Below, piece by piece: positions 7,797 through 44,844 of a DNA stretch of 52,990 nucleotides; the stretch's first letter is position 1, and every line of letters starts with the position of its first letter. The notes below the pieces were generated by a model. It did no database searches. It saw only the letters and a list, made by a program, of their open reading frames with translations, and was not told the origin of the DNA. Source of the DNA: a virus; IMG/VR virus record IMGVR_UViG_3300045988_126024; one strand, 5' to 3'. A program made the position numbers and the translations under genes.

Positions 7797-7831
7797 TACA
7801 AATCCGCCGACTTTGCTAACAAAGTGACGCA

Positions 7832-11217: not shown

Positions 11218-11763
11218 TTACATCACATCACTTTCAAATGCCCATTTATAACCACCTGCCGTTTTATATCCATATAAATTACGACAACAACCTGATATAG
11301 CAGATTGATTTATTCCTGTTATCCTTGCGGCTTGTGATGTGCTTTCGTAACTGCCTACGCAATTCATATCACTGTCAAATTGTGAAACTCTTTTACATAC
11401 TTTTTGCAAATGTGCTTTTTTTCTGTTTTCATTAAGACCATTTGCGTTTGCGTGTAGTTGATTTTCACTATTTGTAGCCCATTCAAGATTATCAGCACGG
11501 TTGTTTTGTTTATTTCCGTCTTTATGATTTACTTGCGGTTTATTATCGGAATTGTTTATAAAGGCTTCTGCTACCAATCTGTGTACGCTAACCAACTTAT
11601 TGAAGAAGTGACACTTTGCATATCCTTTTTTATTTGTGTGCAATTTCATAATTCTCGGTATATTTGGGTGTGCATTACATTTAATTAAACTTCTTACCCT
11701 ACCTAAATTACTAACTTGATATAAACCCTCATAACCTTTAACATCTTTCCAAATTTCTGTCAT
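11218..11763 (-). CDS. Free-standing HNH homing endonuclease (NUMOD4 + HNH_3 + C-terminal HTH)
   Basis: Contains EIWKDVKGYEGLYQVSNLGRVRSL...VNHKDGNKQNNRADNLEWATNSENQ... Confidence 0.8.
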   Translation of the reverse strand: MTEIWKDVKGYEGLYQVSNLGRVRSLIKCNAHPNIPRIMKLHTNKKGYAKCHFFNKLVSVHRLVAEAFINNSDNKPQVNHKDGNKQNNRADNLEWATNSENQLHANANGLNENRKKAHLQKVCKRVSQFDSDMNCVGSYESTSQAARITGINQSAISGCCRNLYGYKTAGGYKWAFESDVM

Positions 11764-11913
11764 TGTAAAACTCCAATAAAAAACCGCAAAGGTACTTGTG
11801 CGGTATCAGCACACTTTCCCAATGCGGAATTAAGCATAATATTAAGTTATTTGTTAAATGTCTGATACCCACTTAACACCTAATATTATATCAAAATAAT
11901 TCCGAATTGTCAA
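11764..11913 (-). promoter_or_regulatory. Consensus promoter plus structured leader of the HNH gene
   Basis: TTGACA (11913-11908), 17 nt, TATAAT (11890-11885). Leader stem GGTATCAG/CTGATACC (11869-11862 / 11809-11802). ACCGCA-N10-TGCGGT followed by T6 lies before the GGAG SD. Confidence 0.6.
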
Positions 11914-11922
11914 TATTTTACA

Positions 11923-13900: not shown

Positions 13901-14009
13901 ACTCTACACCCCTTTCTTTTGCTTTATTTGCAATGTATTCTATTAACCTTGCATTATGTAATTGCTCGCTTTGAATGAGTTTTACAACTACCTTTCTTTT
14001 GCTTCGCAT
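13875..14009 (-). CDS. Small basic ORF (44 aa)
   Basis: AAGGAG lies 8 nt before ATG 14009. Translation MRSKRKVVVKLIQSEQLHNARLIEYIANKAKERG... Confidence 0.3.
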   Translation of the reverse strand: MRSKRKVVVKLIQSEQLHNARLIEYIANKAKERGVEYGASFDRS

Positions 14010-14014
14010 TGTTG

Positions 14015-14221
14015 TTACTCCTTATCCAGTTTTTGAAGTGAATACATATCCTCGTCGGGCACATTAAACACATCTTGAATTGCCTGCCAAAACTCGTGTG
14101 TTCCGCTTCTATGCCCTGTTTCAACAAAGCCGTATGTTGCACGGCTCACGCCAATTTTTGCGGCAAATTCTGCTTGCGTTAGTTTAGTGCCCACTCTGAA
14201 TTGCTTTAGTTTAGTTCTCAT
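14015..14221 (-). CDS. Cro-like XRE-family HTH regulator
   Basis: Contains LKQFRVGTKLTQAEFAAKIGVSRATYGFVETG (HTH_3). Lies in the early operon divergent from the repressor. Confidence 0.7.
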   Translation of the reverse strand: MRTKLKQFRVGTKLTQAEFAAKIGVSRATYGFVETGHRSGTHEFWQAIQDVFNVPDEDMYSLQKLDKE

Positions 14222-14225
14222 TCAC

Positions 14226-14393
14226 TCACCCCCTTTCACTACTTAACTGCTGTACTGTGTTGTTAAGTTCAAACATTTTTGTTTCGCCATGTTCAGCACA
14301 AAGTTGATTGTTAAGGTTAAACACTTCGTCACTCCAATAGCCGTGTGCTCTTATTGCCTTTATTAAGGCTTTTTCATACTCTTTTATAGTCAT
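14226..14393 (-). CDS. Small ORF (55 aa)
   Basis: Hand-translated as MTIKEYEKALIKAIRAHGYWSDEVFNLNNQLCAEHG... Confidence 0.4.
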   Translation of the reverse strand: MTIKEYEKALIKAIRAHGYWSDEVFNLNNQLCAEHGETKMFELNNTVQQLSSERG

Positions 14394-14442
14394 TCATCAT
14401 CAGCCTTTCAAATATGTTTCGTTACGGCGCATGAGAGGGGCG

Positions 14443-14835
14443 TTAAGCCCCTACCTCGCCAAGCATTTGAAAGAAAATAAATTCGGGATTATATGCTGTG
14501 TAACAAGCGATTTCGCAATGTGCTTTGTCGCAAATGTGCCAATTTTTGTTACCTCTCGTCGTGAGTACATCTTTATAAATGATACCTTCGTTGTCGGGGT
14601 CAAAATCGCCTGTTTTTACTGCAATATCAATCAAATATGTCGTGTCGTCGAAATAGTTTTCTGCTTCTTGCATTGCTTCAAGCAGTGTTTGCGCTGTTAA
14701 TGCTTTGTAATAAAGCTCAACGCCAAGAATTTTATAAAAACCGTTTGCTTTCGGTTTGCTTGTGCCACCCGCTTTGGGGTCAAGGCGTATAATGTATTCG
14801 GGTGCTTCTTTAATTGCTTTCTTTGTGATTTTCAT
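14443..14835 (-). CDS. Hypothetical protein, first long gene of the early operon
   Basis: Complete 130-aa ORF with an AGAGGT SD, preceded by an 8-codon uORF (14832..14858). Confidence 0.55.
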   Translation of the reverse strand: MKITKKAIKEAPEYIIRLDPKAGGTSKPKANGFYKILGVELYYKALTAQTLLEAMQEAENYFDDTTYLIDIAVKTGDFDPDNEGIIYKDVLTTRGNKNWHICDKAHCEIACYTAYNPEFIFFQMLGEVGA

Positions 14836-14875
14836 TGTTCTGTACCTCTTTCTTTCATAATCTTAATACCTTTCT

Positions 14876-14965
14876 GTATGGGGGCTTATAGTTCTTTGTG
14901 CCACCTCATTACATCTATTATTATAGCAAAATAACATTTTTTTACAATTCGCAAAATGCACAAAG
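14876..14965 (-). promoter_or_regulatory. Type-1 promoter / 5' stem-loop cassette, copy A (early promoter) with operator-like 23-mer
   Basis: Minus-sense TTGTAA (14947-14942), 16 nt, TATAAT (14925-14920), then a 37-nt stem-loop GTAATGAGGTGGC...GCCCCCATAC (14912-14876) and ACAGAAAGGTA. The 23-mer at 14943-14965 is identical to 19041-19063. Confidence 0.6.
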
Positions 14966-15040
14966 ATAGGCATATTGCTTTGGTAATGTTGCACAAAATG
15001 TACAAATGCTAACAAAATGACACAAAAAAGCAAAAAACAA

Positions 15041-15054
15041 AGGGCGGCTGCCCT
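15041..15054 (-). terminator. Terminator of the 15053..15247 gene
   Basis: Minus-sense AGGGC-AGCC-GCCCT followed by TTTGTTTTTTGCTTTTTT. Confidence 0.5.
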
Positions 15055-15247
15055 ATATCAATTCAATAATCTTGCTTATGTATTGCTCAAATTCTAAATA
15101 TGTAATAAGACCAAATTCTACTGCTATTTCTACTGCTCCGAGTGCTTGAAATGCTAACGCCTTTTTATGCTCTTTATTCCTTGCATTTTTCGCTAATTCA
15201 ATATCAAATTGCAATCTATCTTGAATGGTGCTTCCTGTAGTATTCAA
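15053..15247 (-). CDS. Hypothetical 64-aa protein, monocistronic, divergent from the repressor
   Basis: Complete ORF with its own terminator. It shares the 15248-15433 control region with the CI-like gene. Confidence 0.45.
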   Translation of the reverse strand: MNTTGSTIQDRLQFDIELAKNARNKEHKKALAFQALGAVEIAVEFGLITYLEFEQYISKIIELI

Positions 15248-15433
15248 ATGCTACACCTCGTTACATTATTCAGTTTATTGCCAACCTTGTTTATCATTAT
15301 ACTAATATATCTTTTCATAATCAATAGAAAAAAGCAACAAATGTTCGCACATTGCAACTATAATGTTGCACAAAGATACACATTGTTATCAATTTATGAT
15401 AAGATGTATAAAAATGGGGAGGTGATATATCCA

Positions 15434-15754
15434 ATGTGTTCGATAGGTGAAAAACTAAAAACATTAAGAAAGGGGCGAAAATTAACGCAGCAAGAGTTAT
15501 CCGAAAAATTAGGGCTAAGCCGTGCGACAATTTCAAATTATGAAGTCGGCAGAAGAAGTCCGCATTTAACAGACTTGCGCAAACTTGCTGAATTTTACGG
15601 CGTTGGTCTTGATTATTTCGGCGTGAATACAACAGATGAAAGTTTTGAGTTGTTGAGCCGTGCAAAAAGTGTTTTTCTGAATGACAATATCCCAAAAGAA
15701 GAAAAAGAAAGACTTTACAAAAGCATTATGAAAATTTATTTGCAAATGGACTAA
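15434..15754 (+). CDS. CI-like XRE-family repressor (HTH only, no S24 peptidase domain)
   Basis: GGGAGGTG SD before ATG 15434. Contains IGEKLKTLRKGRKLTQQELSEKLGLSRATISNYEVGRRSP. 106 aa. Confidence 0.75.
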   Translation: MCSIGEKLKTLRKGRKLTQQELSEKLGLSRATISNYEVGRRSPHLTDLRKLAEFYGVGLDYFGVNTTDESFELLSRAKSVFLNDNIPKEEKERLYKSIMKIYLQMD

Positions 15755-15769
15755 CAGGAGGGGTTTTGC

Positions 15770-17371
15770 TTGAAAGAGAAGAACAAACAGTATATACGGA
15801 AAGCCGTTGCTTATGCACGGTTTTCATCAAACAATCAGCGGGAGGAAAGCATAGACGCTCAATTAAGGGCTATCAGCGATTATTGCGAGCGTGAGCATAT
15901 CCAATTAGTAGATATTTTTTCTGATGAAGCACAATCCGCTAAAAGCGATAACAGGGACGATTTTAAGAATATGACAGACGCAATATTCAAAGGCAATTAT
16001 GATATTGACGCTGTGTTAGTCCATAAGTTTAACCGCTTTGCTCGTAACAAGTACGATAGCGCATTGTATAAGAAGCGTTTAAGGGATATAGGCATAAAGG
16101 TTGTGTCCGTTACTCAACCGATAGACGATAGCCCCGAGGGTCGTATTTTGGAAAGTATGATAGAAGCAATGGACGAATACTATTCAGAAAACCTTGCGCT
16201 TGAAGTTAAAAAGGGATTGAAAGAGAATGCACTAAAGGGGAAACATACAGGCGGAGGAAAGTTGTTAGGGCTATCCGTTGATAGCGAGGGCTATTATTAC
16301 CCTAATGAGCAAGCGCCTATAGTACGACGCATATTTTCCGAATTTGCAAACGGCGTACCAAAAACAAAGATAGTTGAGCGCTTAAACCGTGAGGGGCACA
16401 GAAACCAATACGGCAGAAAGTTCAACACCCGTACCATTTTAGACCTATTGCAGAATGAAAAATATATAGGCAATTTTGTATATCAACATTCCGTCACCGA
16501 AACAATACGGCTTGACGGTATAATCAAAAATCCGATAGTCGATTATGAATTGTGGGAGCAAGTGCAGTCAAAGCGTAAATCCCACCATAAGCCAAAGCAG
16601 CGAAAAAGAAACTATTTTATGACTGGCAAATTGCGTTGCGGTATCTGCGGATTTACTTATTGCGGGTCAGGCTCTAAAAGGACAAGCAAAAAAGGAAATA
16701 GCCTTGCCGCATATTACAAGTGCAGCGGCAAGACCAAACACAAAAACAGTTGCACCAACACATCACTAAATAAAGAATTTTATGAGCAACTTGTAATCAA
16801 CACTATAATTGAAAATGTCCTTACCGACAATGCAATAAATGATATTGCCGTAAAGACTTATAAGCAATTAGAAAAAGAACGAAAAGCACCGCTTATCCCT
16901 ACCAAAAAATTAAAAAGCCAACTTGAAGCAGTAAGGAAAAAACAGGAAAAACTAATGGAGTTATTCCTCGACGGCAGTATTGATAAAGATATTTTAGATA
17001 CAAGGAATAATAGCTTAAAAGACGAAAAACGACACATTGAAAGTCAAATAGATAAAAACGAGTATCTTGAAAATTCCAACTCACTAACCGTTGCAGATGT
17101 CAGCAAATTTATAAAAGTCTTTGTAAATGAATTAAAGGAAATGCCCGATATTGAGTTCTCACAAATTGTATATAACACTTTTGTTGATAAAATAACAATT
17201 TATCCCGATAGACTTGAAATAGCGTTGAAAGTGGACTTTTCAACGCTATATAGGGGTGATAAAGTGAATTTCAGGGGGGCAATCTGCTCATTAGCACCCG
17301 TTATAGTAGACATAACTGTTAAGCGCAAGTCCCACCAACAAAGTGCTAAACAAAGGGGATTGAAAAGATGA
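15770..17371 (+). CDS. int: Large serine recombinase (integrase)
   Basis: TTG start after GGAGGGG. Has the resolvase catalytic domain AVAYARFSSNNQREESIDAQ, a recombinase domain, a Zn-ribbon CGICGFTYCG...YYKCSGK...C and a coiled-coil. 533 aa. Confidence 0.9.
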   Translation: MKEKNKQYIRKAVAYARFSSNNQREESIDAQLRAISDYCEREHIQLVDIFSDEAQSAKSDNRDDFKNMTDAIFKGNYDIDAVLVHKFNRFARNKYDSALYKKRLRDIGIKVVSVTQPIDDSPEGRILESMIEAMDEYYSENLALEVKKGLKENALKGKHTGGGKLLGLSVDSEGYYYPNEQAPIVRRIFSEFANGVPKTKIVERLNREGHRNQYGRKFNTRTILDLLQNEKYIGNFVYQHSVTETIRLDGIIKNPIVDYELWEQVQSKRKSHHKPKQRKRNYFMTGKLRCGICGFTYCGSGSKRTSKKGNSLAAYYKCSGKTKHKNSCTNTSLNKEFYEQLVINTIIENVLTDNAINDIAVKTYKQLEKERKAPLIPTKKLKSQLEAVRKKQEKLMELFLDGSIDKDILDTRNNSLKDEKRHIESQIDKNEYLENSNSLTVADVSKFIKVFVNELKEMPDIEFSQIVYNTFVDKITIYPDRLEIALKVDFSTLYRGDKVNFRGAICSLAPVIVDITVKRKSHQQSAKQRGLKR

Positions 17372-17652
17372 ATTGTGTTTTATATATGCCTAATGATACA
17401 AAAATATCCATTTTTGAGCAACATAATATTTGCAATGAAAAAGCCAAACGGTACGGCTATTCCATTGCGCATAGAATTTTTGATATTCGGTGCGACCGTT
17501 TCCATGAAGCAATAAACAAAGTCATTGCAAGCAGCAACATTGAAGCCCTGATAATTTATGATAAATGGACGGTCTTTGATAATTACGACGATTTTTTGTT
17601 TTACTATGTCTATCTAAAAAAACTCGGCAAAAAACTGATTTTGGCAAAATGA
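17368..17652 (+). CDS. Resolvase-catalytic-domain-like protein lacking the Ser nucleophile, translationally coupled to int
   Basis: ATGA overlap with the int stop. CVLYMPNDTK..EQHNICNEKAKRYGYSI...IEALIIYDKWTVFDN...LKKLGKKLI aligns by eye with the int N-domain (AVAYARFSSNNQ..DAQLRAISDYCEREHIQL...IDAVLVHKFNRFARN...LRDIGIKVV). Confidence 0.5.
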   Translation: MNCVLYMPNDTKISIFEQHNICNEKAKRYGYSIAHRIFDIRCDRFHEAINKVIASSNIEALIIYDKWTVFDNYDDFLFYYVYLKKLGKKLILAK

Positions 17653-17657
17653 AAAAA

Positions 17658-17677
17658 GGCGGGGCGCATTCCCCGTC
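17658..17677. terminator. Bidirectional terminator between the int operon and the convergent HTH gene
   Basis: GGCGGGG-CGCATT-CCCCGTC, flanked by A6 upstream and T7 downstream. Confidence 0.7.
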
Positions 17678-17682
17678 TTTTT

Positions 17683-17907
17683 TTATCTAACCATTTTGTA
17701 CTGCGCTTTCAGTTTCTCGTCTGTGAGCAAGTCGGTAATTTTACAGTCAAGCGCTATTGCAAGGTCACACAACGCCTTTATGTGTGCGCCGTTTATATCT
17801 CTTGTTCCTTGCTCGTAGCATTGAATTGTTCTTTTGCTCACCCCTGACGCAACGGCAAGGTCATTTTGTGAATAACCTTTTTTTACTCGCTTTTCTTGTA
17901 ATGTCAA
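17683..17907 (-). CDS. XRE-family HTH protein (74 aa)
   Basis: TTG start 7 nt after GGAGGA. Contains KKGYSQNDLAVASGVSKRTIQCYEQGTRD. Confidence 0.7.
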   Translation of the reverse strand: MTLQEKRVKKGYSQNDLAVASGVSKRTIQCYEQGTRDINGAHIKALCDLAIALDCKITDLLTDEKLKAQYKMVR

Positions 17908-17956
17908 TTTCTTGTCCTCCGTCTGTCTTGTGCTTCCAATATGATTATGCCATAAT

Positions 17957-17999
17957 GCGGGGCTTTTTCGTACTGCATACGCTGTATTATAAGCCCCGC
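17957..17999. repeat. Inverted repeat GCGGGGCTT-N25-AAGCCCCGC (candidate operator / attP / atypical terminator)
   Basis: Perfect 9-bp arms read directly. No flanking T-run. The loop contains TATAAT in minus sense. Confidence 0.5.
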
Positions 18000-18005
18000 T
18001 TCTGT

Positions 18006-18422
18006 TCAGTCAAACAACGGTTTGAAATACCTGTTGAATGTTTCGTCAAGTTCTTTGCCCGTCATGTGTTCTTCATCAATGTATTCAATTAACTTGTCGT
18101 CAACATTGAATAAATTGAGTTTTCCTTTGACTGGGAACGGCTTTATTGTTCTAAAATCTGTTAGCCGCCACCCGTAAATGGGCTTTTCGGGCTGCTCGTC
18201 AATGCCAATTTGCTTTAGTTCTCTTTTGCTCAACGGCTCGACGGCTGCCAAACGGCAAACAATTAGGGCGTGACCGCTGATTGTGCCTTTCTCTTTCGGC
18301 GCTGCGCTGCTGCATATAAGCAAGTCACCTCTATGTTTTGTCTGCCATGTTCTGTATTCCGTTGTCTTGGTGCCGCACAAAATCTGATGTGCAAAATGCG
18401 GCTTAATGGAAATTGCTTTCAT
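18006..18422 (-). CDS. ASCH-domain protein
   Basis: Contains MKAISIKPHFAHQILCGTKTTEYRTWQTKHRGDLLICSS...GHALIVCRL, the ASCH beta-barrel pattern. Confidence 0.65.
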   Translation of the reverse strand: MKAISIKPHFAHQILCGTKTTEYRTWQTKHRGDLLICSSAAPKEKGTISGHALIVCRLAAVEPLSKRELKQIGIDEQPEKPIYGWRLTDFRTIKPFPVKGKLNLFNVDDKLIEYIDEEHMTGKELDETFNRYFKPLFD

Positions 18423-18440
18423 TCAATACCTCTTTCGCTG

Positions 18441-18632
18441 TTAAAATAATTGTGACAATGCCACAAACTCGGCATACTCTGCCGCCTGCTTCATGCGTCT
18501 TTCTGCTCGCTTCAACTGCTTTGCTTTGCGCTGTCTGATAGACTTCTCAATGAAACAGCACGCCGCATATAGCAAGGAAGTTGCTAAAATGCAGCCAAAA
18601 AGCAAAAGACCGCAAAACTGGTATTCTGTCAT
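18441..18632 (-). CDS. Small membrane protein (one TM segment plus a basic tail)
   Basis: Contains CGLLLFGCILATSLLYAACCFI followed by RQRKAKQLKRAERRMK. Confidence 0.45.
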   Translation of the reverse strand: MTEYQFCGLLLFGCILATSLLYAACCFIEKSIRQRKAKQLKRAERRMKQAAEYAEFVALSQLF

Positions 18633-18697
18633 GTATATGCCCCCTTTCTATTCTTTGCGGCTGTCGGGTTTGCGACCGTCTGCCTGACCGCATTACC

Positions 18698-18719
18698 TAC
18701 CACCCTTGCAAGGGCGGTA
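18698..18719. repeat. GC-rich 22-bp near-perfect palindrome TACCACCCTTGCAAGGGCGGTA (candidate attP core or operator)
   Basis: 20 of 22 positions are self-complementary. It lies in a 98-bp GC-rich non-coding gap inside the moron operon. Confidence 0.45.
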
Positions 18720-18730
18720 GTCGCTCTGCG

Positions 18731-18958
18731 TTACCATACTTCTGCCATTACTTCATCTTTAAGAATAGTTGCGGCTCTGCCTATAAGTTGCTTGCTTTCT
18801 TCACCTGTTGTGAACATTTCAATGTTGCTTTTCGCCCACTCTGCTAACTCTCTCGTCGTATAGGTACGCTTGATATATCGCAACCAAGAATAGTCAAATG
18901 GTCTGTTTTCTTCAATTACCATTTCTGCAAGTTCTCTTGCTGTCATTTTTTTACTCAT
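18731..18958 (-). CDS. Hypothetical 75-aa protein
   Basis: ATG 18958 (MSKKMTARELAEMV...) follows ACAGAAAGGTA. The longer ORF-track start would run through the promoter. Confidence 0.5.
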   Translation of the reverse strand: MSKKMTARELAEMVIEENRPFDYSWLRYIKRTYTTRELAEWAKSNIEMFTTGEESKQLIGRAATILKDEVMAEVW

Positions 18959-18972
18959 AATTTTACCTTTCT

Positions 18973-19063
18973 GTAATAGGGGGCTTATTGTTTCTTGCCC
19001 CCTCATTACATATACTATTGTACTACAAATGAAGTACAAATACAATTCGCAAAATGCACAAAG
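18973..19063 (-). promoter_or_regulatory. Type-1 promoter / 5' stem-loop cassette, copy B
   Basis: TTGTAT (19045-19040), 17 nt, TACAAT (19022-19017). Stem-loop GTAAT-GA-GGGGGC-N12-GCCCCC-T-ATTAC (19009-18973). 23-mer at 19041-19063. Confidence 0.6.
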
Positions 19064-19104
19064 TTATGTGCGATTTTTTGTACAATTTTGCCAGTATTGC
19101 ATAA

Positions 19105-20025
19105 TTAGTAAATGTCGGCTAATTCTTGCAACTCCTCTTGCACTCTCTTTAGGGCGTATTTGGCATTTTGCGTCAACTGTCTTTGCCATGCGCTATTTGA
19201 CGGCGACCACCTAAAGCCGTTACCTTTCATAATCTGTCTTGCTTCTGCGTTCGGTTTACCGTCAAAAATCACTTGCAAGCGCATTATTTCGGCATTTTCC
19301 ACCACCTTGTATAAATCTGCCGTTTCGTCGGCTTCGGGCTGTTCTGCCGTGTCTGCCGCTTCTTTTTTCAACCGCTCAATCTGCGCCATTCTCGCCTTTG
19401 TGTTTCTGATTTTTGCATTGTTGTTTTGCAGCGCATACGGTGGGAACGGTACGCCGTACATACTATCTTTGATAGCCGTGTCAAGTTCTGCCGCTTTCTC
19501 GTCGGTATAATCTTTGTAGCCTTTCAGCGTCTTGTGCTTGCGGTAGTAGGCATTTACCGCTTTCATCTCGGCTTGCAGTGCTTCGGCTTTTTCAAGTTTC
19601 CTCTGCAACTGCTCTAAAGCGTCTGCGTCGCCTGATTTGATGATATTTGCCCCCCGCAAAAGCCCCGCTATCTTTTCTGGTATCTGCTGAATTTCTTTGT
19701 ACAACTGATAGTGCCTATCCTGTGCTGCGTTCTGTTTCTCTTTCTTTCTCACTGGGAAGTTGCTGCCGCCGCAAATCATAACGGACGGGCACATCATTTC
19801 AATTCTGAATTGCTTGTTGTACCACTCTGCAAGGCGGCGGGCGTATCTGTCTGCCATTGCCGCCCCTCTCTCTTTCAGTTCTTCGGGTAGGCGGTCAACC
19901 TCTGCATAGCACCTGTCAACCGCTGCCCTGTATTCTGCTGTTTTGCTGCCGTGCTCATATTCGCTAAAAGACCACATTCCACGGGCTTGCCGTGCCACTT
20001 CTTCGTTGATTTCGTAGTATTTCAT
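19105..20025 (-). CDS. DUF3560-like protein
   Basis: The C-terminus VENAEIMRLQVIFDGKPNAEARQIMKGNGFRWSPSNSAWQRQL and the central PYALQNNNAKIRNTKARM match my recollection of DUF3560. Confidence 0.55.
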   Translation of the reverse strand: MKYYEINEEVARQARGMWSFSEYEHGSKTAEYRAAVDRCYAEVDRLPEELKERGAAMADRYARRLAEWYNKQFRIEMMCPSVMICGGSNFPVRKKEKQNAAQDRHYQLYKEIQQIPEKIAGLLRGANIIKSGDADALEQLQRKLEKAEALQAEMKAVNAYYRKHKTLKGYKDYTDEKAAELDTAIKDSMYGVPFPPYALQNNNAKIRNTKARMAQIERLKKEAADTAEQPEADETADLYKVVENAEIMRLQVIFDGKPNAEARQIMKGNGFRWSPSNSAWQRQLTQNAKYALKRVQEELQELADIY

Positions 20026-20040
20026 TTTTATTACCTCTCT

Positions 20041-20277
20041 TTATAAAAAATCTACTGGAACATTTATCGGCTCTATCATTGCTATATAGCTTTCGGCGTG
20101 TTCAATGTCTTTTGCCTGAATAACTGGACTGTATATACCGCCTGTCACATTAAGAACGCTGTACCACCCGTCACGCTCTTTGACTAAGATATAATCAAGC
20201 CCGTTTGCGTGTCTTCGTAACACCTCTCTGCCGTCGCTTCTCGCCTGCTCTACATACTCTTTATATCTGTCAGTCAT
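20041..20277 (-). CDS. Hypothetical protein
   Basis: Complete 78-aa ORF with a GAAAGGTGA SD. Confidence 0.5.
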   Translation of the reverse strand: MTDRYKEYVEQARSDGREVLRRHANGLDYILVKERDGWYSVLNVTGGIYSPVIQAKDIEHAESYIAMIEPINVPVDFL

Positions 20278-20311
20278 ATCTTTATCACCTTTCTTGTAAA
20301 TGTTTCATTTT

Positions 20312-20344
20312 GGCGCAAAGCGTGGGGCATAAAGCCCCTGCGCC
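20312..20344 (-). other. Intercistronic nested stem-loop
   Basis: Minus-sense GGCGCA-GGGGC-TTTAT-GCCCC-ACGCTT-TGCGCC, immediately after the stop of the 20345 gene. No T-run. Confidence 0.4.
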
Positions 20345-20695
20345 TTAGTTGCTCATCATGTCGTAGACTTCTTCTGTCTCGTATCTGATAACATGAACAA
20401 AGTCACAACTTGCCTTTTCTTTTTCGCTGCACTGACATTCTGATTTTAGTTGACCGTCTACAATGTATCTCTTGCCGTCGTACATAGGTGGCATATAGCC
20501 GTCAACTAATGGCTGATTATCAAGTTCAGCCCTATGGCATAAAATGCCTTTTGCTCTCTGCTCGCTTAAATCTTTACTGTAACCTTTAATAAGATTTCTG
20601 ATTTCAAGTGCGGCAAATTGCCACATCTTGCCGTTAAATTCACCGCCGACAAATTCATAGCGGTATTTGTTTGTGTCAAGTGTTTTCATAGTCAT
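20345..20695 (-). CDS. Hypothetical protein
   Basis: Complete 116-aa ORF, the first gene after type-1 cassette D. Confidence 0.5.
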   Translation of the reverse strand: MTMKTLDTNKYRYEFVGGEFNGKMWQFAALEIRNLIKGYSKDLSEQRAKGILCHRAELDNQPLVDGYMPPMYDGKRYIVDGQLKSECQCSEKEKASCDFVHVIRYETEEVYDMMSN

Positions 20696-20708
20696 TACCT
20701 TTCTTTCT

Positions 20709-20797
20709 GTAATATATAGTAGGCTGTGTGCCCCTCGCTTATTACACTATTATAATAACACAAACGCAGTATAATAGCAATTAGCAAGTTGCACAAA
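20709..20797 (-). promoter_or_regulatory. Type-1 promoter / 5' stem-loop cassette, copy D (divergent centre)
   Basis: TATAAT (20754-20749). A 37-nt element GTAATA...TATTAC (20745-20709), then ACAGAAAGAAAGGTA. TTGCACAAA at 20789-20797. Confidence 0.5.
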
Positions 20798-20909
20798 TAT
20801 TTATTGATTTTGCGGCACTTTTTTGTTTATTTATACCGCAAAGGTGGTATAATAATAATGTAGAGATAAGATTTAATAAATATGATATTATAAAAAAGGG
20901 TGATAAAAA

Positions 20910-21158
20910 ATGTTAGAACAAAAGCAAATCCTTGAATATGCTGTTAAAGGTATCAACAAAGATATTGAAGAATTAGACAAGGCGGCAAGAAAAGGCGGGC
21001 AAATGATTGACGCTTATTACAAAGGCGAAACGCTCAAAACAAAACTTCCAATTTATGAAATTGAAAACATTTACAGAGAGAAAAAGGCAGAGATTGAAAA
21101 ACTCGAACAAATGAAAAATGAATTGAAATGGCAACTATCCGAATTAGAAGAACAATAA
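20910..21158 (+). CDS. Hypothetical coiled-coil protein (moron)
   Basis: Complete ORF on the opposite strand with an extended -10 TGgTATAAT upstream and a terminator downstream. Confidence 0.5.
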   Translation: MLEQKQILEYAVKGINKDIEELDKAARKGGQMIDAYYKGETLKTKLPIYEIENIYREKKAEIEKLEQMKNELKWQLSELEEQ

Positions 21159-21165
21159 AAAAAGC

Positions 21166-21189
21166 GGGGCTATCAATTAAGATAGCCCC
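21166..21189. terminator. Bidirectional terminator
   Basis: GGGGCTATC-AATTAA-GATAGCCCC flanked by A7 and a T-rich tract. Confidence 0.75.
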
Positions 21190-21200
21190 TTTGTTGTGGG

Positions 21201-22010
21201 TTAAACTCTCTTTGTGAATGAAAGTTTAATATACCCGATACCCGATTTTAATTTACCCCAGCCGTCCTTTTCTGCAACGATTGTGTAAACTTCATTTCTG
21301 CGTACGGTCGCTTTGACCTTGTAGCCAATTCCTGCACCTGCTCTTACATTAAGGGCAGTAGCATTGATTTTGACTTTATAAGGAAATTTTGACTTCGTTT
21401 CTGTCTTTTTTGCAGTTTCCTTTTTCTGCTCTTTTAAGCCCCTAACACTTGCGATTGCCTTTGCGATTGCTTCACCGCATTTCTTTTGTCCTGCGGCAGT
21501 TTTGACTTTTGCAAGGTCGCTGTCCGTGTCAATAAATACCGTTTCGACAAGAACGGCGCAAGGCTTTGTGCTGCGGATAATCCCAAAGTAGTCATTACCG
21601 CTTGAACCAAGTTTTGTTTTTGCCCCTCTGTTCTTCACACCAAATGCGTTTGCAATGTTCTTTGTGATTGCTTCGGCGTACTTTTTGCCCCTCTCGCTTT
21701 CGTGGTGGTGGTAACATTCCGTGCCAGTTCCGCCGCCTGCGTTAAGGTGGATTTCAGCGATAAAATCGTATGTATCGTCTTTAAGTTTGTTGATACGCTC
21801 CTGCAAGGACAATCCGCCGTCATAATTCATCAGGTCGCAATGCTCGGAATAATGCTCATTGTAATACTGCTGTGCGTATTTACCAATTTCCTTTGCAATT
21901 CTGAATTCGTGATACTTTTTGTCCTTAGATACTGCGCCGCTGTCGTAACTCTTGCCGTCGTCTGCTGTGCCGTGTCCGATTGTAATAATAATCTTTTTAG
22001 CCATTCGCAT
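21201..22010 (-). CDS. Endolysin: N-acetylmuramoyl-L-alanine amidase (Amidase_3) + SH3 domain
   Basis: Contains IITIGHGTADDG...AEIHLNAGGGTGTECYHH...VLVETVFIDTDSD. The C-terminus YKVKINATALNVRAGAG...GWGKLKSGIGYI is SH3-like. Confidence 0.85.
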   Translation of the reverse strand: MRMAKKIIITIGHGTADDGKSYDSGAVSKDKKYHEFRIAKEIGKYAQQYYNEHYSEHCDLMNYDGGLSLQERINKLKDDTYDFIAEIHLNAGGGTGTECYHHHESERGKKYAEAITKNIANAFGVKNRGAKTKLGSSGNDYFGIIRSTKPCAVLVETVFIDTDSDLAKVKTAAGQKKCGEAIAKAIASVRGLKEQKKETAKKTETKSKFPYKVKINATALNVRAGAGIGYKVKATVRRNEVYTIVAEKDGWGKLKSGIGYIKLSFTKRV

Positions 22011-22609: not shown

Positions 22610-24961
22610 TTACCACTCAAAGACAGCACGCAAAACAACATCGTTTCGCTCGTCTTTATCGTTGTTGAAACTTCCCTTGATACAATTATCGTGAATATAA
22701 ATACTCTTGATAATACGGCGTTCCGTGTCAACATCATTAACATTACTGCCCATATATCTCGGAATATCACAATAGAACGCTTTGCCGCCCCAATTTCCGC
22801 CTGTTGGGTTTTTCTTTGGTATCATTGTAGTAACAAAGTCGCTGTCGTTTGCTTTCTTTGTGTCTTTGTCGTAATCACTCCAAAGCAAAAGCCAACCATT
22901 GCGGCACTCGGACAACTTCTTTGACGGTGTGACCGTCTGCGGTGTGCTGTTAGGGCTTGACATATACGCTGCTCCAGTCCAAAGCGGTGCAGGTGACGCT
23001 TCAAATATAGCTTTCCAATCTCGCCAAGTACCATTATCAACATAGCCTGTGTAAACACTACCTCTACCGCCAAACGCCATTACCCAACCGTACTTTGCTG
23101 AACCTGTCTTATGTACCATAAAACGGAACGACTCAATACTGTTCGGGTTATTTGTTGTGCCGATTGAAGCATAAGCAGTTGTCATTCCTGAACCAAGAGC
23201 CTTAATTTTTGCAACAACATCTTGATTAGTCCAACTAACCTCTACATCACCGTCGTCCGCTGTCATTTGCAACGATTTAGCAATATAAGCGGAATTATGA
23301 TTGTGACTTGTGCTTGCCTTACCTGCAAGGGCTGTATTGATAACCTTATTTTGAACGGGATTAGTGCTTGAAGCGCTCAACGCTGTATCAACGGTTGTTT
23401 TGTTCGCACCTGTGGCAATGCCGTTCAACTTCGTTTTATCCTCTTTGCTCATAAAGCCGTTTGCAGTAGTTGAAGCGGCACCGTGAGTATGTCCCGTGTT
23501 TGCTTTGCCACTTAATGCTGTTGCAAGCCCTGTCACATCACTTTGAGCGTGTGTATGTGCTGTCGGTGTCATAGTCGTAGGCTTATTCGACAAATCGTTA
23601 TAACTGCCCGTTGTGGCTACATCTGCAAGCCCAGTAATCATACTTGCGGGGTGTGAAGTCGGGTGAGTGTATTTATTTGCACCCGCCGCAATTCCTGCAA
23701 GTTTAGTCTTTTCATCAGTTGTATAATCGTTTGTCGAAAGCCCTTTGCCTGTGACCTTATCCACCTTGTTACCCAAAGCAGAGTTTACAGCTTTGTTTTG
23801 AACGGGATTTGTACTTGTACTTGACATTGCCGTGTCAACTACTGTTTTGTTTGCCCCTGCCGCAATTCCACTTAACTTTGTTCTTTCATCAGCCGTCATA
23901 ATCTTTTTGGCGGTCGTTTCAGAAACATCATCAAGAGAATGTGTGTGACTTGCAGCAGCCTTTCCACTCAAAGCCGTGTCAAGACCTGTAATATCGCCCG
24001 TTTCGTGAGTGTGAGAAGCATTAGCCTTATTGCCTAACGCCGTTGCCAGTCCTGTAATATCGCTCTGTGCGTGGGAGTGAGTGCTGTTTGCTTTGCCTGC
24101 TACTTCCGTTTCAAGTGCTTCAACATCATCATTTGTTGCGTACTGTGAGTGCGTATGTGCTGCGTCGGCTTTACCTGCAAGCTGTGTAGCGGTCGCAAAG
24201 TATGTAGTGTCGTGACCGTCAAGCATATCTGCGTCAAGTCCGCTATTTTGTCCGTCAACGGTTTTAAGTTTTGTAAGCACTTCGGCAGCGGTGATATTTG
24301 CGCCGCTTGCGCCTGTGTCGCCCTTATCGCCTTTAAGACTTGCAAGCCATTCCGCCTGTGTGCCAACAAAGCCATTATCAAGGGCAATTTGGTATGCGCT
24401 TTTACCGTCCTGACCGTTAGCGCCTGTAGCGCCCGTGTCACCTTTCACGCCCTGAATGCCCTGCTGTCCTTGTTCGCCTTGCTCGCCTTTATCGCCCTTA
24501 TCACCTTTTACGCCCTGTTCGCCAGTTTCGCCCTTGTCTCCCTTGTCGCCTTTTTCACCTTTCAAGGCTGCAAGTTGAGCGGCTGTAAAATCGTCATAAG
24601 TGAATGGGTCGCCTTTGTCGCCCTTTGCGCCCGCTGCGCCTGCTTCACCTTTGATATTGACGCTTGCGGGGTTTGCAAGTCCCTTGTCGTTGTTCCAAGA
24701 CAAAGTACCGTCACTTGATACACTCGGCGTAAATGTTGCGCCGTCCTCGCCGTCTGCTCCTGCCGTTCCGTTATCCCAAGTCGCTACTTTTTCTGCTGTG
24801 ATACCGTCAAGCACGGCTTTATTGCTGTGGGTGTGCAAATCGCTTGCATTTGCCTTTTCAGCAATAGTGCTGTCCATACTGTCCAACTTTGTTGTTAGCG
24901 GCTCGCCTGTACCTTTATAATCAACCTCGTCAGATGTACAACTGAAACTCCAATCAGGCAT
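22610..24961 (-). CDS. Tail fibre with collagen-like Gly-X-Y tract and repeated HxH segments
   Basis: ATG 24961 lies 7 nt after AAGGGGG. Contains [52 protein letters not shown] and several (A/S)xHTH/SHSH...DITGL repeats. Confidence 0.8.
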
Positions 24962-25091: not shown

Positions 25092-26720
25092 TCAGCGGTA
25101 CAAAATCTGAATGTGCGTGCTGTCAATCCGTTTCATCACTCTGTAACCTGTATCAGACTTTGTTGCTTTGCCACCGTCAGCAGCCTTGCAATATCCGTTG
25201 ACTTCGCAAGTGCCGTCGTCAACAACAACTAACTTGCCCATAAGACCAACGCAAGCCCATTCTTTTCTGAATTCTCGGCTTGTGTATTCCTCGTCAGGGT
25301 CATAGTCAGGGTTTACAACATATCTTGTAATGGTGTGAGCTGAAACAACCTCGCCTGTTTCTTCGTCCGTGCTTTCAGGCACTTCTACGGTTTCTGTGAG
25401 CGGTTGACCGAACACATCTTTTTTATACATTCCGTGCCAGTTCTCGGACTGAACATCACCAACAACAGACGGATTTGCAGAAATCACGCCGACTATATAA
25501 TCATCAGCAGCGGTAGCAAGTCTAATCTTATCACCGTCTAAAGTAACAAACAGTCCTCGTCTGTCCTCGGCTTTTTTGTTTCCGTCACGCCACTCAAAAA
25601 ATTCGGCGTAATCCGCCCCGCTTGAACCGAACGATTGAGCGCCCATACATTTTCCTGCGGCTGTAACTCTAAATGCGTTTGCTTGTGTAGTAGCTGTTCC
25701 ACAACCGATAATAAAAATTGAATTGTCTGCTGACTGGTCATTCTCATTAGTGCAGCCAGATTTTGCTATGTTGTATTTTCCTGTAACAAACTGATAATCG
25801 TTTGCTGTTGTGCTTACTCCGCTTGCGTGTGAATTCGCACCGATTGCGTTCGTAAAAATCCCCTCTGCGTGGGAATTATTTCCGCTTGCTTCCGTACTCT
25901 CTCCCTCTGCGTGGGAATTATTTCCGCTTGCTTTCGTACTATTCCCCTCTGCGTGTGAACTCTCACCGCTTGCAGTCGCATTCTGTCCCTCTGCGTGGGC
26001 AGCGAAACTGCTTGCAGTCGTAGTCACCCCCTCTGCGTGAGCAGCCGCACCAGTTGCGTTCGCAATCAATCCCTCTGCGTGTGAACTCTCACCGCTTGCA
26101 GTTGTGCCATTTCCCTCTGCGTGGGAATTATTTCCGCTTGCTTTCGTACTTCTTCCCTCTGCGTGAGAATAGTTACCGCTTGCTGTTGTATAAGACCCCT
26201 CGGTGTGGGACGCATAACCTTTTGCTTCTGTTCCTTCTCCCTCTGCGTGGGAAGCATAGCCAACTGCTGTTGTTTTTGTTCCCTCTGCGTGGGAAAATTC
26301 ACCGCTTGCAACATTACCCTGATTAACAGTTCCGTCTGTCGCAAATGTTCTTTCTTTATAATCGTTGAAAATTTCTGCTCCTGGACCTGCTTGAACGCTT
26401 TTTCCGCTTTCAGGATAGACTGTTTGCATGTGTAACGATTTGCCTGTTTTCTTTTCGTACTCTGCGTGTAAATGAGATATAGAAGCCTTTCCACTCAAAG
26501 CGGCTTCAAGACCTGTAATGTTATTCATTCCGTGAGTATGGTAAGTATCAGCCTTTCCTTTTTGCAGTTCGTCAATGCAGATACCGTATTTATTGAACAT
26601 ATAGTTGAAAACGGGTGCGGGCGGCTTATAGCCTGCTTGAAATCCGTTTGTTTTAAGCGTTTCACTCGGCGCAACGCCAACATTGCTCCATGACGGCGGC
26701 GCTGTAAATGTTGTTGCCAT
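25092..26720 (-). CDS. Tail fibre/spike with 14-aa SHAEG repeats and a C-terminal peptidase-G2-like autoproteolytic (intramolecular chaperone) domain
   Basis: About 11 repeats of (G/N)xSHAEGxxTxASG. C-terminal SGADYAEFFEWRDGNKKAEDRRGLFVTLDGDKI. Confidence 0.65.
   Translation of the reverse strand: MATTFTAPPSWSNVGVAPSETLKTNGFQAGYKPPAPVFNYMFNKYGICIDELQKGKADTYHTHGMNNITGLEAALSGKASISHLHAEYEKKTGKSLHMQTVYPESGKSVQAGPGAEIFNDYKERTFATDGTVNQGNVASGEFSHAEGTKTTAVGYASHAEGEGTEAKGYASHTEGSYTTASGNYSHAEGRSTKASGNNSHAEGNGTTASGESSHAEGLIANATGAAAHAEGVTTTASSFAAHAEGQNATASGESSHAEGNSTKASGNNSHAEGESTEASGNNSHAEGIFTNAIGANSHASGVSTTANDYQFVTGKYNIAKSGCTNENDQSADNSIFIIGCGTATTQANAFRVTAAGKCMGAQSFGSSGADYAEFFEWRDGNKKAEDRRGLFVTLDGDKIRLATAADDYIVGVISANPSVVGDVQSENWHGMYKKDVFGQPLTETVEVPESTDEETGEVVSAHTITRYVVNPDYDPDEEYTSREFRKEWACVGLMGKLVVVDDGTCEVNGYCKAADGGKATKSDTGYRVMKRIDSTHIQILYR
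25861..26322. repeat. 11 tandem 42-bp in-frame repeats (plus a degenerate unit at 25819)
   Basis: CCCTCTGCGTG recurs at 25861, 25903, 25945, 25987, 26029, 26071, 26113, 26155, 26197 (variant), 26239 and 26281, an exact 42-nt period. Confidence 0.9.
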
Positions 26721-29234: not shown

Positions 29235-29256
29235 AACACACCGTTTAAGGTGTGTT
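29235..29256 (-). terminator. Terminator hairpin overlapping the stop codon of the HNH-like gene
   Basis: Minus-sense AACACACC-TTAAAC-GGTGTGTT followed by T6. Confidence 0.6.
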
Positions 29257-29877
29257 TAATGCTTTTTCTATATTCCAATGTGATTGATTTATTCTTTCAC
29301 AAAGTCGTTTGTACGGTATGTTGTATTCCTTTGCCCATTGTGCAAGTGTTTGAGTTTTTCCCTTGTAAGTTATAAAGTGATTGCGCCTTGTATTATTGTT
29401 TTGCTCTGTTCGTGTCACCCAACGACAATTAGACGGCTCGTAATTTCCATTGCTATCTATTCTGTCAATAGTCAAATCATCTTTATAGCCGTTAGCCATT
29501 GCCCAATCATAAAATGCTTGAAAGTCGTGCAACCATTCATCACATACGGTTATTCCTCTACCGCCATAATTATGATAATTTATTGTTTTTGGATTTGTGC
29601 ACCGTTGCACCATTCCGCTCCACACACCATATATCTTGGTATTAGTTTTGTGATGTTTTATATTTGCTTTTGCTCTTTGCTCTTTACCGAAACAGCCACA
29701 ACTTACAGTTGCCCCTCTTTGCAAATTTGCACTTCTTACCTCGCAAGTATTACCACAATCGCACTTGCATAACCACATAACTATGTGTCTGCCGTTCGGT
29801 TGTACATAGTCTTTTGCTCGTTCGATAACTGTCAATCTTCCAAACCTTTGACCTGTCAAGTCTATAAAAGCGCCCAT
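29245..29877 (-). CDS. Free-standing HNH_3/AP2-like homing endonuclease
   Basis: ATG 29877 lies 6 nt after GGAG. Contains GQRFGRLTVIERA...CKCDCGN...YGGRGITVCDEW...IDRIDSNGNYEPSNCRWVTRTEQNNN. Confidence 0.65.
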   Translation of the reverse strand: MGAFIDLTGQRFGRLTVIERAKDYVQPNGRHIVMWLCKCDCGNTCEVRSANLQRGATVSCGCFGKEQRAKANIKHHKTNTKIYGVWSGMVQRCTNPKTINYHNYGGRGITVCDEWLHDFQAFYDWAMANGYKDDLTIDRIDSNGNYEPSNCRWVTRTEQNNNTRRNHFITYKGKTQTLAQWAKEYNIPYKRLCERINQSHWNIEKALNTP

Positions 29878-30018
29878 AATTAACTCCAAATAAAAACCGC
29901 AAGGTACTTGTATGGTACGAGCATACTTTCCCTCACGGTATTTGACATAATATGAAATTGCTGAAAGTCTCGTACTCTTTCACTTACATATTATACCAAA
30001 ATAGTATTTTTTTGTCAA
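29878..30018 (-). promoter_or_regulatory. Consensus promoter plus structured leader of the HNH-like gene
   Basis: TTGACA (30018-30013), 17 nt, TATAAT (29995-29990). Leader stem GTACGAG/CTCGTAC (29975-29969 / 29921-29915) covaries with the 11.8-kb copy. Confidence 0.6.
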
Positions 30019-30020
30019 TA

Positions 30021-30929: not shown

Positions 30930-30952
30930 TACAACACCACCTTTTCCAAGCA

Positions 30953-44727: not shown

Positions 44728-44844
44728 ATACTTTCACCTCTACAATATTATAATATATAAAACTTTTTTAGTATATTGACACATTACACAAAATTGTATG
44801 TAAATATTTGTATTTGTTTGTGCAATATGCGAGTTACATTTATA

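Follow-up and report, generated by a model that had tools for sequence, protein, structure and literature searches.

The window analyzed here, the whole 52,990-nucleotide stretch of the IMG/VR virus record IMGVR_UViG_3300045988_126024, is an apparently complete, circularly permuted phage genome with a GC content of 41%. An exact terminal repeat of 99 nucleotides (nt; positions 1-99 are identical to 52892-52990) marks the window as 52,891 bp of circularly assembled (or terminally redundant) sequence. Nearly all genes are carried on the minus strand, and the phage is temperate. The element under study is a cassette of ~100 nt in which a promoter, a hairpin and a Shine-Dalgarno (SD) block follow one another in front of a start codon. 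It occurs four times on the minus strand, as units A, B, C and D (aa, amino acids; ORF, open reading frame):

14867-14965, minus strand: unit A, with the CTTTGTGCA box at 14957-14965, the -35 TTGTAA at 14942-14947, the TGc-extended -10 TATAAT at 14920-14925, a 37-nt hairpin element at 14876-14912 and the SD block ACAGAAAGGTA at 14867-14877
18964-19063, minus strand: unit B, with the box at 19055-19063, the -35 TTGTAT at 19040-19045, the -10 TACAAT at 19017-19022, the hairpin at 18973-19009, the SD block at 18964-18974 and the ATG at 18956-18958 of a 75-aa ORFan (18731-18958)
50028-50126, minus strand: unit C, with the box at 50118-50126, the -35-like TAGATA at 50103-50108, the TGt-extended -10 TATTAT at 50080-50085, the hairpin at 50037-50073, the SD block ACAGAGAGGTA at 50028-50038 and the ATG at 50018-50020 of a 63-aa ORF (49829-50020)
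20696-20798, minus strand: unit D, with the box ATTTGTGCA at 20790-20798, the -35 TTGCTA at 20775-20780, the -10 TATTAT at 20752-20757, a 37-nt element at 20709-20745, the SD block AAAGAAAGGTA at 20696-20706 and the ATG at 20687-20689 of a 114-aa ORFan

The four units display one colinear architecture over ~100 nt. The upstream part consists of (C/A)TTTGTGCA (the CTTTGTGCA box), 9 nt, a TTGnnA-like -35 hexamer, 16-17 nt and the -10 hexamer; there follow 6-7 nt, the 37-nt GTA...TAC element, the block ACAGARAGGTA and, after 3-9 nt, the ATG. From A to D, the -35-like hexamers are TTGTAA, TTGTAT, TAGATA and TTGCTA and the -10 hexamers TATAAT, TACAAT, TATTAT and TATTAT, the latter being TG-extended in A, C and D. 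The leader of each unit contains a strong purine-rich ribosome-binding site (RBS) 3-9 nt 5' of the ATG. A preceding sequence-only reading of the window had placed the SD block ACAGA(A/G)AGGTA behind the hairpin of all four units, and it is indeed present there; unlike the ACAGARAGGTA of A-C, the block in D has the altered form ACAGAAAGAAAGGTA with a 4-nt insertion. Alignment of the units yielded a mean column identity of 76% over 126 columns. In leave-one-out nhmmer searches, hidden Markov models (HMMs) built from three units recovered the fourth with E-values of 8e-15, 4e-15, 8e-13 and 1e-11, which is far beyond chance. The sequence ACAGAAAGGTA, with at most one mismatch, was counted eight times in the window versus 1.2 expected.

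A covariance model of the hairpin plus SD block scored units A, B and C at 59-69 bits and unit D at 11.7 bits (E-value 0.26). The centre of the D element is divergent, with an outer GTAATA:TATTAC and an inner GGGC/GCCU pairing. The sequence-only reading had noted a divergent centre in D with the same outer stem and length. The score is marginal: D has the promoter and flanks in common with the family and not the hairpin proper. The family therefore numbers four by promoter and flanks and three by hairpin proper. A fifth minus-strand copy, unit E, had been assigned to the same architecture and is excluded from it:

31005-31069, minus strand: unit E, with TTGACA at 31064-31069, N17, TATAAT at 31041-31046 and a hairpin at 31005-31037
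~30961-30982, minus strand: terminator-like hairpin and T-run, after the unit E hairpin and before the baseplate-hub gene (30021-30965)

Unit E contains neither a CTTTGTGCA box nor ACAGAAAGGTA, was undetected at E<=10 by the unit HMM or the hairpin covariance model, and has a promoter that groups with repeat family D8. Its hairpin is different from, and stronger than, that of the A-D type, and its resemblance to B is confined to GTA(A)TGAGGGGGC. Unit E is not a unit of the A-D type (type 1) but belongs to another promoter/leader family. Between its hairpin and the terminator-like hairpin (region 30957-31069), a GCGGCG segment complements the 3' arm CGCCGC of the hairpin; the region, located in the tail module, is a candidate attenuator or small-RNA-like leader.

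The promoter half of the units belongs to a widespread class. Searches with whole units by nhmmer, which replaced a strict regular expression for hairpin plus SD that had matched one locus only among the terL relatives, found related promoters in phage contigs with related terL or integrase genes. In these contigs the upstream half (TTTGTGnA..TTGCGAATTG...TGTGnTAnAAT, then ATAgATGTAAT) is conserved better than the hairpin. A pattern derived from this half of the nhmmer-related promoters, TTTGTRNATTTTGCNNATTG-N18-24-TANAAT, matched 117 loci in species-representative bacterial genomes and more than 113 viral loci, with a spacer of exactly 20 nt in 176 of 228 matches. The bacterial loci lie nearly all in gut or rumen Clostridia (Oscillospiraceae, Acutalibacteraceae, Ruminococcus and Lachnospiraceae), where the class promoter stands before MsmX-like ABC ATPases, CarD-like proteins, type IV pilin, transporters and tRNA genes. 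Many phage-like ORFans also stand behind it in the bacterial contigs, and the ATPase, CarD-like and pilin genes are apparently chromosomal. The class consensus is TTTGTGcATTTTGCctATTGa-N17-(TRTG)TATAAT, and the class to which the box belongs has the form TTTGTGCATTTTGCcTATTGaca-N17-TATAAT. An HMM built exclusively from 158 instances outside the window matches B (E-value 1e-9) and A (1e-6); by the same model, the promoters of C and D are diverged versions of the class. The proposal that the units carry promoters is thus well supported, and units A-D are predicted to be active with the host polymerase as members of a Clostridia-wide class. The host itself is probably a member of the gut Clostridia, as indicated only by the taxonomic spread of the class and by a homologue of the unit A gene in an Acutalibacteraceae metagenome-assembled genome (MAG).

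The CTTTGTGCA box, which the sequence-only reading had left uninterpreted, is the most informative feature of the units. A role of the box as phage-specific operator was rejected because the box belongs to the promoter class in many Clostridia genomes. We conclude that it is a promoter element, UP-like or otherwise associated with the polymerase or a host factor.

Two further arrangements were seen around promoters of this class. A conserved 20-nt element, TTTGTGCATTTTGCcTATTG(ACA), lies immediately next to the -35 of sigma-A-type promoters in numerous MAGs and phages of gut and rumen Clostridia (loci L204-L431 of the genome and viral contigs, L numbers designating loci from outside the window; window positions 14919-14970 and 19014-19068), sometimes between two copies of a variable palindromic operator (e.g. 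TATACTTCCGTAAGTATA). A literature search found no paper containing the promoter motif, and the element may be an undescribed promoter determinant. In viral contigs of ~20-180 kb, several of them >100 kb, hairpins rich in GC (GGCCGGCC...GGCCGG) and a tract rich in T stand directly behind the -10 of the class promoter, an arrangement that often recurs in tandem with further promoters (L337, L344, L345, L351, L353, L356, L359, L360, L363, L364, L377, L379, L383, L386, L388, L395, L402, L409 and L415). These may be promoter/stem-loop arrays similar to the PeSLs (promoter-early stem-loops) of T4-like phages, or small RNAs. A 14-base pattern, TGTAATGAGGNGGCA, gave mostly chance matches in the viral contigs and was not used.

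The position of the hairpin relative to the promoter is constant: 6-7 nt separate the hairpin from the -10 in all variants, regardless of promoter subtype. Since class membership anchors the -10, the predicted start of transcription coincides with the G of GTAAT, the base with which the hairpin element opens, or lies no more than ~2 nt from it. The earlier suggestion of a transcript-initial hairpin is therefore plausible from the position of the -10 and refers to a predicted start. In minimum free energy (MFE) folds, pairing sets in at nt 1 in B and at nt 4-8 in other variants. In windows of ~59 nt the fold energies were -8.9 kcal/mol for A (z -1.1 relative to shuffled sequences), -18.9 for B (z -4.3), -13.4 for C (z -2.3) and -10.5 for D (z -1.3). 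The stem formula given previously, GTAAT-GA-GGGGGC-loop-GCCCCC-T-ATTAC, is exact in B only, which is also the only unit with the full GTAAT:ATTAC outer stem. Units A and C end in ...CCCCCATAC and lack the ATTAC outer arm, and A has GGTGGC.

Flank-anchored pattern scans of viral and metagenome contigs brought the number of distinct type-1 hairpins to 13. All 13 keep a G:C core helix of 5-7 bp, with energies of -5.5 to -16.6 kcal/mol and z values of -1.4 to -5.9, and both the hairpin length (35-37 nt) and the distance from the -10 are fixed across at least four promoter subtypes. The loops had been described as differing while the stems were kept; they are in fact restricted to three conserved A-rich types of 12-16 nt, ACAAAGAACTAYAA, A(A)GAAACAATAA and ARGCAATAATAAATA. 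Primary sequence is likewise conserved across promoter subtypes and unrelated phages, with UGAGGGG on the 5' side and CCCC(A/U)UACAGAAAGGUA on the 3' side, and the 3' arm ends ~3 nt before the SD block.

RNAalifold analysis of the 13 variants returned nine pairs with 12 one-sided changes, all of them to G.U or U.G, and four broken or gapped cells; double-sided covariation was not found. Such G.U pairs are compatible only with RNA of the sense strand, which argues against a role as DNA or as antisense RNA. Three further changes are visible by eye and were not counted by the tool: the loop-closing C-G is U-A in L440, one G and one C are deleted together in L391, and a bulged A forms an A-U pair in L004-1811. 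They rest on reading by eye as MAFFT gave no stable stem register across the A/C and B types. The case for selection on pairing is accordingly suggestive, not strong.

Hairpins at this position are not confined to type 1. Other cassettes of the promoter superfamily contain unrelated hairpins in the same place (AAGGA/TCCTT, GGTAGG/CCTAC, GAGGGC-AACA-GCCCTT and GCC-GAAA-GGC), and some have no hairpin at all. Among viral loci of the class, 42% reach an MFE of -10 kcal/mol or lower in the 45 nt after the predicted start, versus 10% at +200 (Fisher p = 2e-6); the corresponding values for bacterial contigs are 29% and 17% (p = 0.07). A hairpin in the 5' untranslated region (UTR) is a frequent but facultative companion of the class promoters, above all in phages. 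Rfam searches of the whole window at the gathering score and of 14700-21300 at E<=1 gave no match on the units. An RNase III site was rejected, the helix being too short, and so was an intrinsic terminator, as the element lacks a T-run and lies downstream of its own promoter.

Next we consider the genes that the cassettes head. The features that define their surroundings are:

15770-17371, plus strand: serine integrase
within 15209-15754, plus strand: XRE-type repressor
from ~14,900 downward, minus strand: early operon (Erf-like, SSB, DnaD-like and dUTPase proteins)
18664-18730, minus strand: Twister-P5 ribozyme match (RF02684), 42.9 bits versus a gathering score of 37.6
48518-49753, minus strand: terL, followed by portal and MuF, with the head, tail and lysis genes after them
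49786-49814, minus strand: terminator-like hairpin of 12 pairs plus T-run, between the unit C ORF and terL
44839-44927, plus strand: D9 cassette with TTGACT-N17-TACAAT, hairpin AAGCCGACGGGCTT and AGAAAGGTAAA, then a 117-aa ORF (44932-45285)
50161-50249, plus strand: second D9-type cassette, divergent and back to back with unit C, heading ORFs 50253-50507 and 50520-50714

Unit A lies ~76 nt downstream of a terminator-like hairpin (15054-15041) and heads the early lytic operon, as had been stated; it is not a moron. Units B and D are located in the accessory region, which extends from the lysis genes to the integrase/att end, and no terminator is present between either cassette and its ORF. For unit C, the earlier view that it heads the terL-portal-MuF block is doubtful, with the 63-aa ORF and the terminator-like hairpin 49814-49786 in between; no obvious promoter was seen between this hairpin and terL. 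Searches of the ORFs behind B, C and D with PHROGs, Pfam and PADLOC identified mostly ORFans and no defence-system match for the first genes, the exception being a 306-aa match to a PHROG 'primase' family in the D operon.

Comparison of the window with genomes of 96-99% identity by blastn revealed that ORF replacements are bounded by the cassettes. At unit B, homology extends ~12 nt into the ORF, as far as 18945, and sets in again at the edge of the ribozyme match (18733); in genome 114923 a different ORF occupies the slot behind an identical promoter, hairpin and SD block. The Twister-P5 match starts right after the stop codon of the 75-aa ORF and forms the downstream edge of the swappable slot. 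An active ribozyme here would separate the accessory ORF from the downstream ORFs by cleaving the transcript between them. At unit D, homology ends at 20684, next to the ATG (20687-20689), and resumes at 20317. At unit C, L124 diverges from 50078, just before the hairpin, and continues with another 5' UTR and another ORF, while L125 diverges at 50046, inside the hairpin; homology resumes at 49837 or 49827 (L124/L125). The unit C ORF is replaced in L124, L125 and L126, and the terminator-like hairpin 49814-49786 forms the downstream edge of this slot. The plus-strand cassette 44839-44927, which belongs to the same promoter superfamily by a weak nhmmer match, has breaks at 44893, in its hairpin, and at 45317; L124 and L125 lack both this hairpin and the ORF. 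The AAGCCGACGGGCTT hairpin is present in both plus-strand D9 cassettes of the window.

Two observations concern the immediate neighborhood of units A and C. After the SD block of unit A, an 8-codon mini-ORF (MKERGTEQ*, 14832-14858, minus strand) ends with a stop codon that overlaps the ATG of the 130-aa ORF 14443-14835 (ATGA). The mini-ORF is conserved in the sister genome (L003/L164), which suggests a translationally coupled leader peptide. Directly before terL, the sequence AAAGCAATAGACAAAAGCGGTTGAGCAAATCAGCCGCTTTTTTGTGTTGTTTTT (a 12-bp hairpin plus T-run; window 49754-49837, minus strand) occurs also in L124-L127, L133 and L141, and nucleotide-level conservation of the region persists where the identity of terL is as low as 68-74%. 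Such conservation exceeds what a plain terminator would require, and the region could be a pac/terminase site, a late-promoter site, a site for a regulator such as the phrog_36 protein encoded at 870-1358, or a target of antitermination.

The distribution of the element was assessed in a census of 84 loci (1.07 Mb) from phages with a related terL (54-99% identity) or integrase. The hairpin-plus-SD covariance model recovered its training members and a truncated copy in L125, and no new members; apart from that copy, the hairpin was confined to the two genomes nearest to the window (IMGVR 3300045988_114923 and _143416). It is absent from all census relatives with a terL identity of 74% or less. 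As to the question raised beforehand, whether the element is missing from related phages, it is present in the closest genomes, absent from the more distant relatives and dispensable at unit C in sister genomes. Outside this lineage, isolated cassettes sit in otherwise unrelated viral contigs of 70-105 kb and in several metagenome contigs. In L391, L440/L462, L432/L445/L473 and L451 the cassette is the sole similarity to the window within 2.5-14 kb. The same downstream genes (MKTLDTNK..., MSAYIV... and MFSVDK...) are found elsewhere behind different promoter/hairpin subtypes, and the 130-aa gene of unit A is carried also by L413, behind a hairpin-less class promoter.

We infer from this distribution and from the breakpoints that units A-D may be portable expression cassettes for accessory and early genes, in which the hairpin acts as 5' stabilizer and RBS insulator and the repeats act as patches of homology; we regard this account as the best supported and as about evenly poised between right and wrong. 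Under it, a host polymerase of the sigma-A type would start at the strong cassette promoter (the TTTGTGCA-N2-TTGC element, a TTGnnA -35 and a TRTG-extended -10), and transcription would begin at the foot of the G:C hairpin or a few nt from it. The hairpin would fold in the nascent mRNA and tie up its 5' end, thus protecting it from 5'-end-dependent decay by enzymes of the RNase J/RNase Y type. It would also keep the constant 5' UTR off the coding sequence downstream, so that the RBS stays open whatever the cargo, and the strong purine-rich SD would then drive translation from the ATG 3-9 nt on. In this manner the cassettes would serve the early lytic operon (A), the accessory ORFan slots near the integrase/att end (B and D) and the slot before terL (C). 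Their near-identity over ~100 nt would allow ORFs to be exchanged within the lineage and with unrelated phages, and ordinary homologous recombination would then explain the breakpoints. The early operon includes a gene for an Erf-like annealing protein.

A number of observations weigh against a function of the hairpin as RNA. The family is young, being confined to two close genomes and transferred copies, and the conservation of the hairpin could reflect recent descent rather than selection. The unit C hairpin is absent in L124 and has lost its 3' arm in L125, and in both the unit C promoter, the terminator downstream and a 99% identical terL are kept. The 130-aa early gene stands behind hairpin-less class promoters in L413 and L233. 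The hairpins of A and D fold no better than shuffled sequences (z -1.1 and -1.3), RNAalifold detected no double-sided covariation, and the MFE folds leave 3-7 nt unpaired at the predicted 5' end in several variants, by which 5'-end protection would be weakened. Most of these points are also what would be seen if the hairpin had no RNA function and were a hitch-hiker, for example the remnant of an old terminator or of some other element, in a promoter/RBS cassette that was recently duplicated and spread horizontally; likeness between copies would then stem from recent descent and gene conversion. With a family so young and dispensable, this is a serious alternative, which we hold to be possible, if on the unlikely side. 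It does not readily accommodate the predominance of pairing-compatible stem changes (12 G.U versus four broken cells), the paired indels and the C-G to U-A change seen by eye, or the constancy of the hairpin length of 35-37 nt and of the distance from the -10 across at least four promoter subtypes. Nor does it account for the enrichment of structure at the predicted start in the promoter class and the different hairpins at the same position in sister cassettes.

The conservation of primary sequence in addition to pairing (UGAGGGG and CCCC(A/U)UACAGAAAGGUA), the limitation to three A-rich loop types and the end of the 3' arm so close to the SD block would suit an operator at which a sequence-specific regulator, such as an RNA-binding protein of phage or host or a translational repressor or activator acting by the SD, co-regulates the cassette genes. 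We consider such an operator improbable. Three loop families and the register shifts between A/C and B argue against one precise protein-RNA interface, the cassettes move into otherwise unrelated phages in which a dedicated phage partner would usually be absent, and family searches of the window proteins identified no candidate RNA-binding protein.

The sequence-only reading had also proposed a signal similar to nut or put that makes RNA polymerase resistant to termination; the transcript-initial hairpin, alone or with a factor, would then modify the polymerase such that it reads through downstream terminators. In phage HK022, put is a two-stem structure of ~65-70 nt directly after the promoter; nut of phage lambda combines boxA with a boxB hairpin whose loop is small and conserved. 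The units resemble both in having an RNA element just downstream of a phage promoter, and a terminator lies downstream of unit C: the strong terminator-like hairpin between unit C and terL has no obvious promoter after it, and terminator-like hairpins close the leaders of HNH cassettes in the early operon below A. Moreover, the invariant TGTAAT at the start of the element resembles a -10 hexamer of the kind that may induce sigma-dependent promoter-proximal pausing. Unlike put, the units display a single hairpin of 35-37 nt followed at once by SD and ATG; unlike nut, they have no boxA-like sequence in the 10-20 nt before the ATG and have 12-16-nt loops of three types. One short helix with a large variable loop is neither a two-stem fold nor boxA plus boxB. 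The state of L124 and L125, which retain promoter, terminator and terL without an intact hairpin, is hard to reconcile with a need of the hairpin for terL expression. No terminator separates B or D from their ORFs, Rfam gave no match at E<=1, and all more distant relatives in which the terminator before terL is retained lack the element. A nut- or put-like signal is thus poorly supported and, in our estimate, very unlikely. Slightly less likely still is a variant in which the hairpin, perhaps with the -10-like TGTAAT at +1, is a minimal antitermination signal that acts against the terminator in front of terL and the early-operon leaders and spreads with the cassette; this would couple the promoters of accessory genes to genes essential for the phage.

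Finally, we give hardly any credence to the inverted repeat acting as DNA, that is, as a recombinase or nuclease site that actively moves the cassettes in targeted module exchange: the breakpoints at or inside hairpins (50078, 50046 and 44893), the cassettes standing alone in unrelated genomes, the Erf-like annealing protein and several HNH endonucleases encoded by the phage and the speculation of the PeSL authors that their GGGG...CCCC stem-loop might be the target of a recombination protein (PMC2839356) would favor it, but G.U and U.G changes are mismatches in DNA and in the opposite strand, the breaks at 18945 and 20684 lie at the start codon and fit plain homologous recombination across ~100 nt of identity, and no dedicated recombinase is associated with the cassettes.

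Several other features of the window are recorded here. Two similar 45-nt segments (15330-15375 and 14953-14998, minus strand), both beginning with TTTGTGCAACATTA and one containing the perfect palindrome TGCAACATTATAGTTGCA, are candidates for operators of the repressor and occupy the repressor-early switch region, one upstream of unit A and one upstream of the promoter of a 64-aa ORF. Three perfect TATTGACA-N17-TGnTATAATAT promoters (7640-7798, 11764-11915 and 29878-30020, minus strand) head HNH/homing endonuclease genes (6824-7642, 11218-11763 and 29245-29877), two of them inside the early operon. Their leaders of ~100-110 nt have a terminator-like hairpin at the end, just before the SD (…ACCGCACAAGTACCTTTGCGGTTTTTT ATTGGAG…), and gave no match in Rfam; these copies resemble mobile endonuclease cassettes whose leader is of the attenuator type. 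The 542-aa ORF 25092-26720 holds ten tandem 42-nt units (60-72% identity) at 25760-26347, and a 796-aa ORF has short repeats with a period of 9 nt at 24310-24634, which suggests repetitive, collagen-like or fibre-like tail proteins. A megablast search of 14000-22000 against the INPHARED phages found no relative.

Hairpin stabilizers at the 5' end, morons and the shuffling of promoter cassettes are known already, and no principle is changed by the present findings. New are the location of the cassettes at junctions of module exchange, their movement between unrelated gut phages and the promoter element of Clostridia-wide occurrence that they contain. Should the account of portable expression cassettes be correct, temperate phages of gut Clostridia use a plug-and-play cassette as T4-like phages use PeSLs, one that both expresses accessory genes and lets ORFs swap within and between phage lineages. 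This would offer a handle for the accessory-gene slots of uncultured gut phages, for their mosaicism and for expression parts in Clostridia that are hard to engineer. As a by-product, the promoter class with its conserved 20-nt element next to the -35 may prove useful more widely than this.

With regard to known systems, morons, a concept of Hendrix and colleagues, are autonomous promoter-gene-terminator units in prophages. The slots resemble them in harboring small ORFans with a promoter of their own between conserved modules (before terL and near the integrase/att end) and in varying between near-identical genomes. Unit C combines a promoter, a variable ORF and the terminator 49814-49786; unit B combines a promoter and a variable ORF with an edge formed by the match to the self-cleaving twister ribozyme; unit D has a variable ORF and no terminator of its own. 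In contrast to morons, the promoter cassette itself is here the repeated, conserved element, shared by several slots and by the early operon (A).

Bacillus mRNAs are stabilized by hairpins or by an RBS located at the 5' end or close to it, as reviewed in PMC3997798; examples of 5' stabilizers are the B. subtilis aprE leader (a 5' stem-loop plus RBS), the polypurine sequence of phage SP82 and ermC, and in E. coli the 5' hairpins of ompA and papA. The units share with these a strong purine-rich RBS, a short leader of ~55 nt and a presumed Firmicutes-type host, a background in which protecting the 5' end works particularly well; if transcription starts where predicted, they would also share a hairpin at the 5' end or close to it, and a stabilizing role of the hairpin would plausibly fit the RNA-decay biology of Firmicutes. 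They differ in having no sequence similarity to the aprE, SP82, ermC, ompA or papA elements and in the 3-7 nt possibly unpaired at the predicted 5' end of several variants. To our knowledge, a large A-rich loop of 12-16 nt is not a feature of stabilizers of these types.

The closest parallel is provided by the PeSLs of T4-like phages, repeated promoter/stem-loop/SD cassettes beside variable non-essential ORFans (Arbiol et al. 2010, PMC2839356; Comeau et al. 2014, PMC4122927). Like them, the units are short, multi-copy composite cassettes of an upstream region, a sigma-70-type -35/-10 pair, a G-rich/C-rich stem-loop, an SD and a start codon, and they adjoin ORFans that differ between close relatives. 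The PeSL stem is generally GGGG...CCCC, and crossovers were mapped between the -10 and the ATG (PMC2839356); the breaks at our cassettes lie at or inside the hairpin for C and the plus-strand cassette, and a few nt past the start of the ORF for B and D. The PeSL stem-loop, however, is positioned just upstream of the promoter and is the terminator of the preceding gene (PMC4122927), whereas that of the units belongs to the 5' UTR, follows the -10 at a distance of 6-7 nt and lacks a T-run. PeSLs are furthermore found in virulent T4-like myoviruses of Gram-negative bacteria, as opposed to the temperate, integrase-bearing phage of presumed gut Clostridia analyzed here. We therefore treat the cassettes as probable functional counterparts of PeSLs in genome plasticity, but not as PeSLs.

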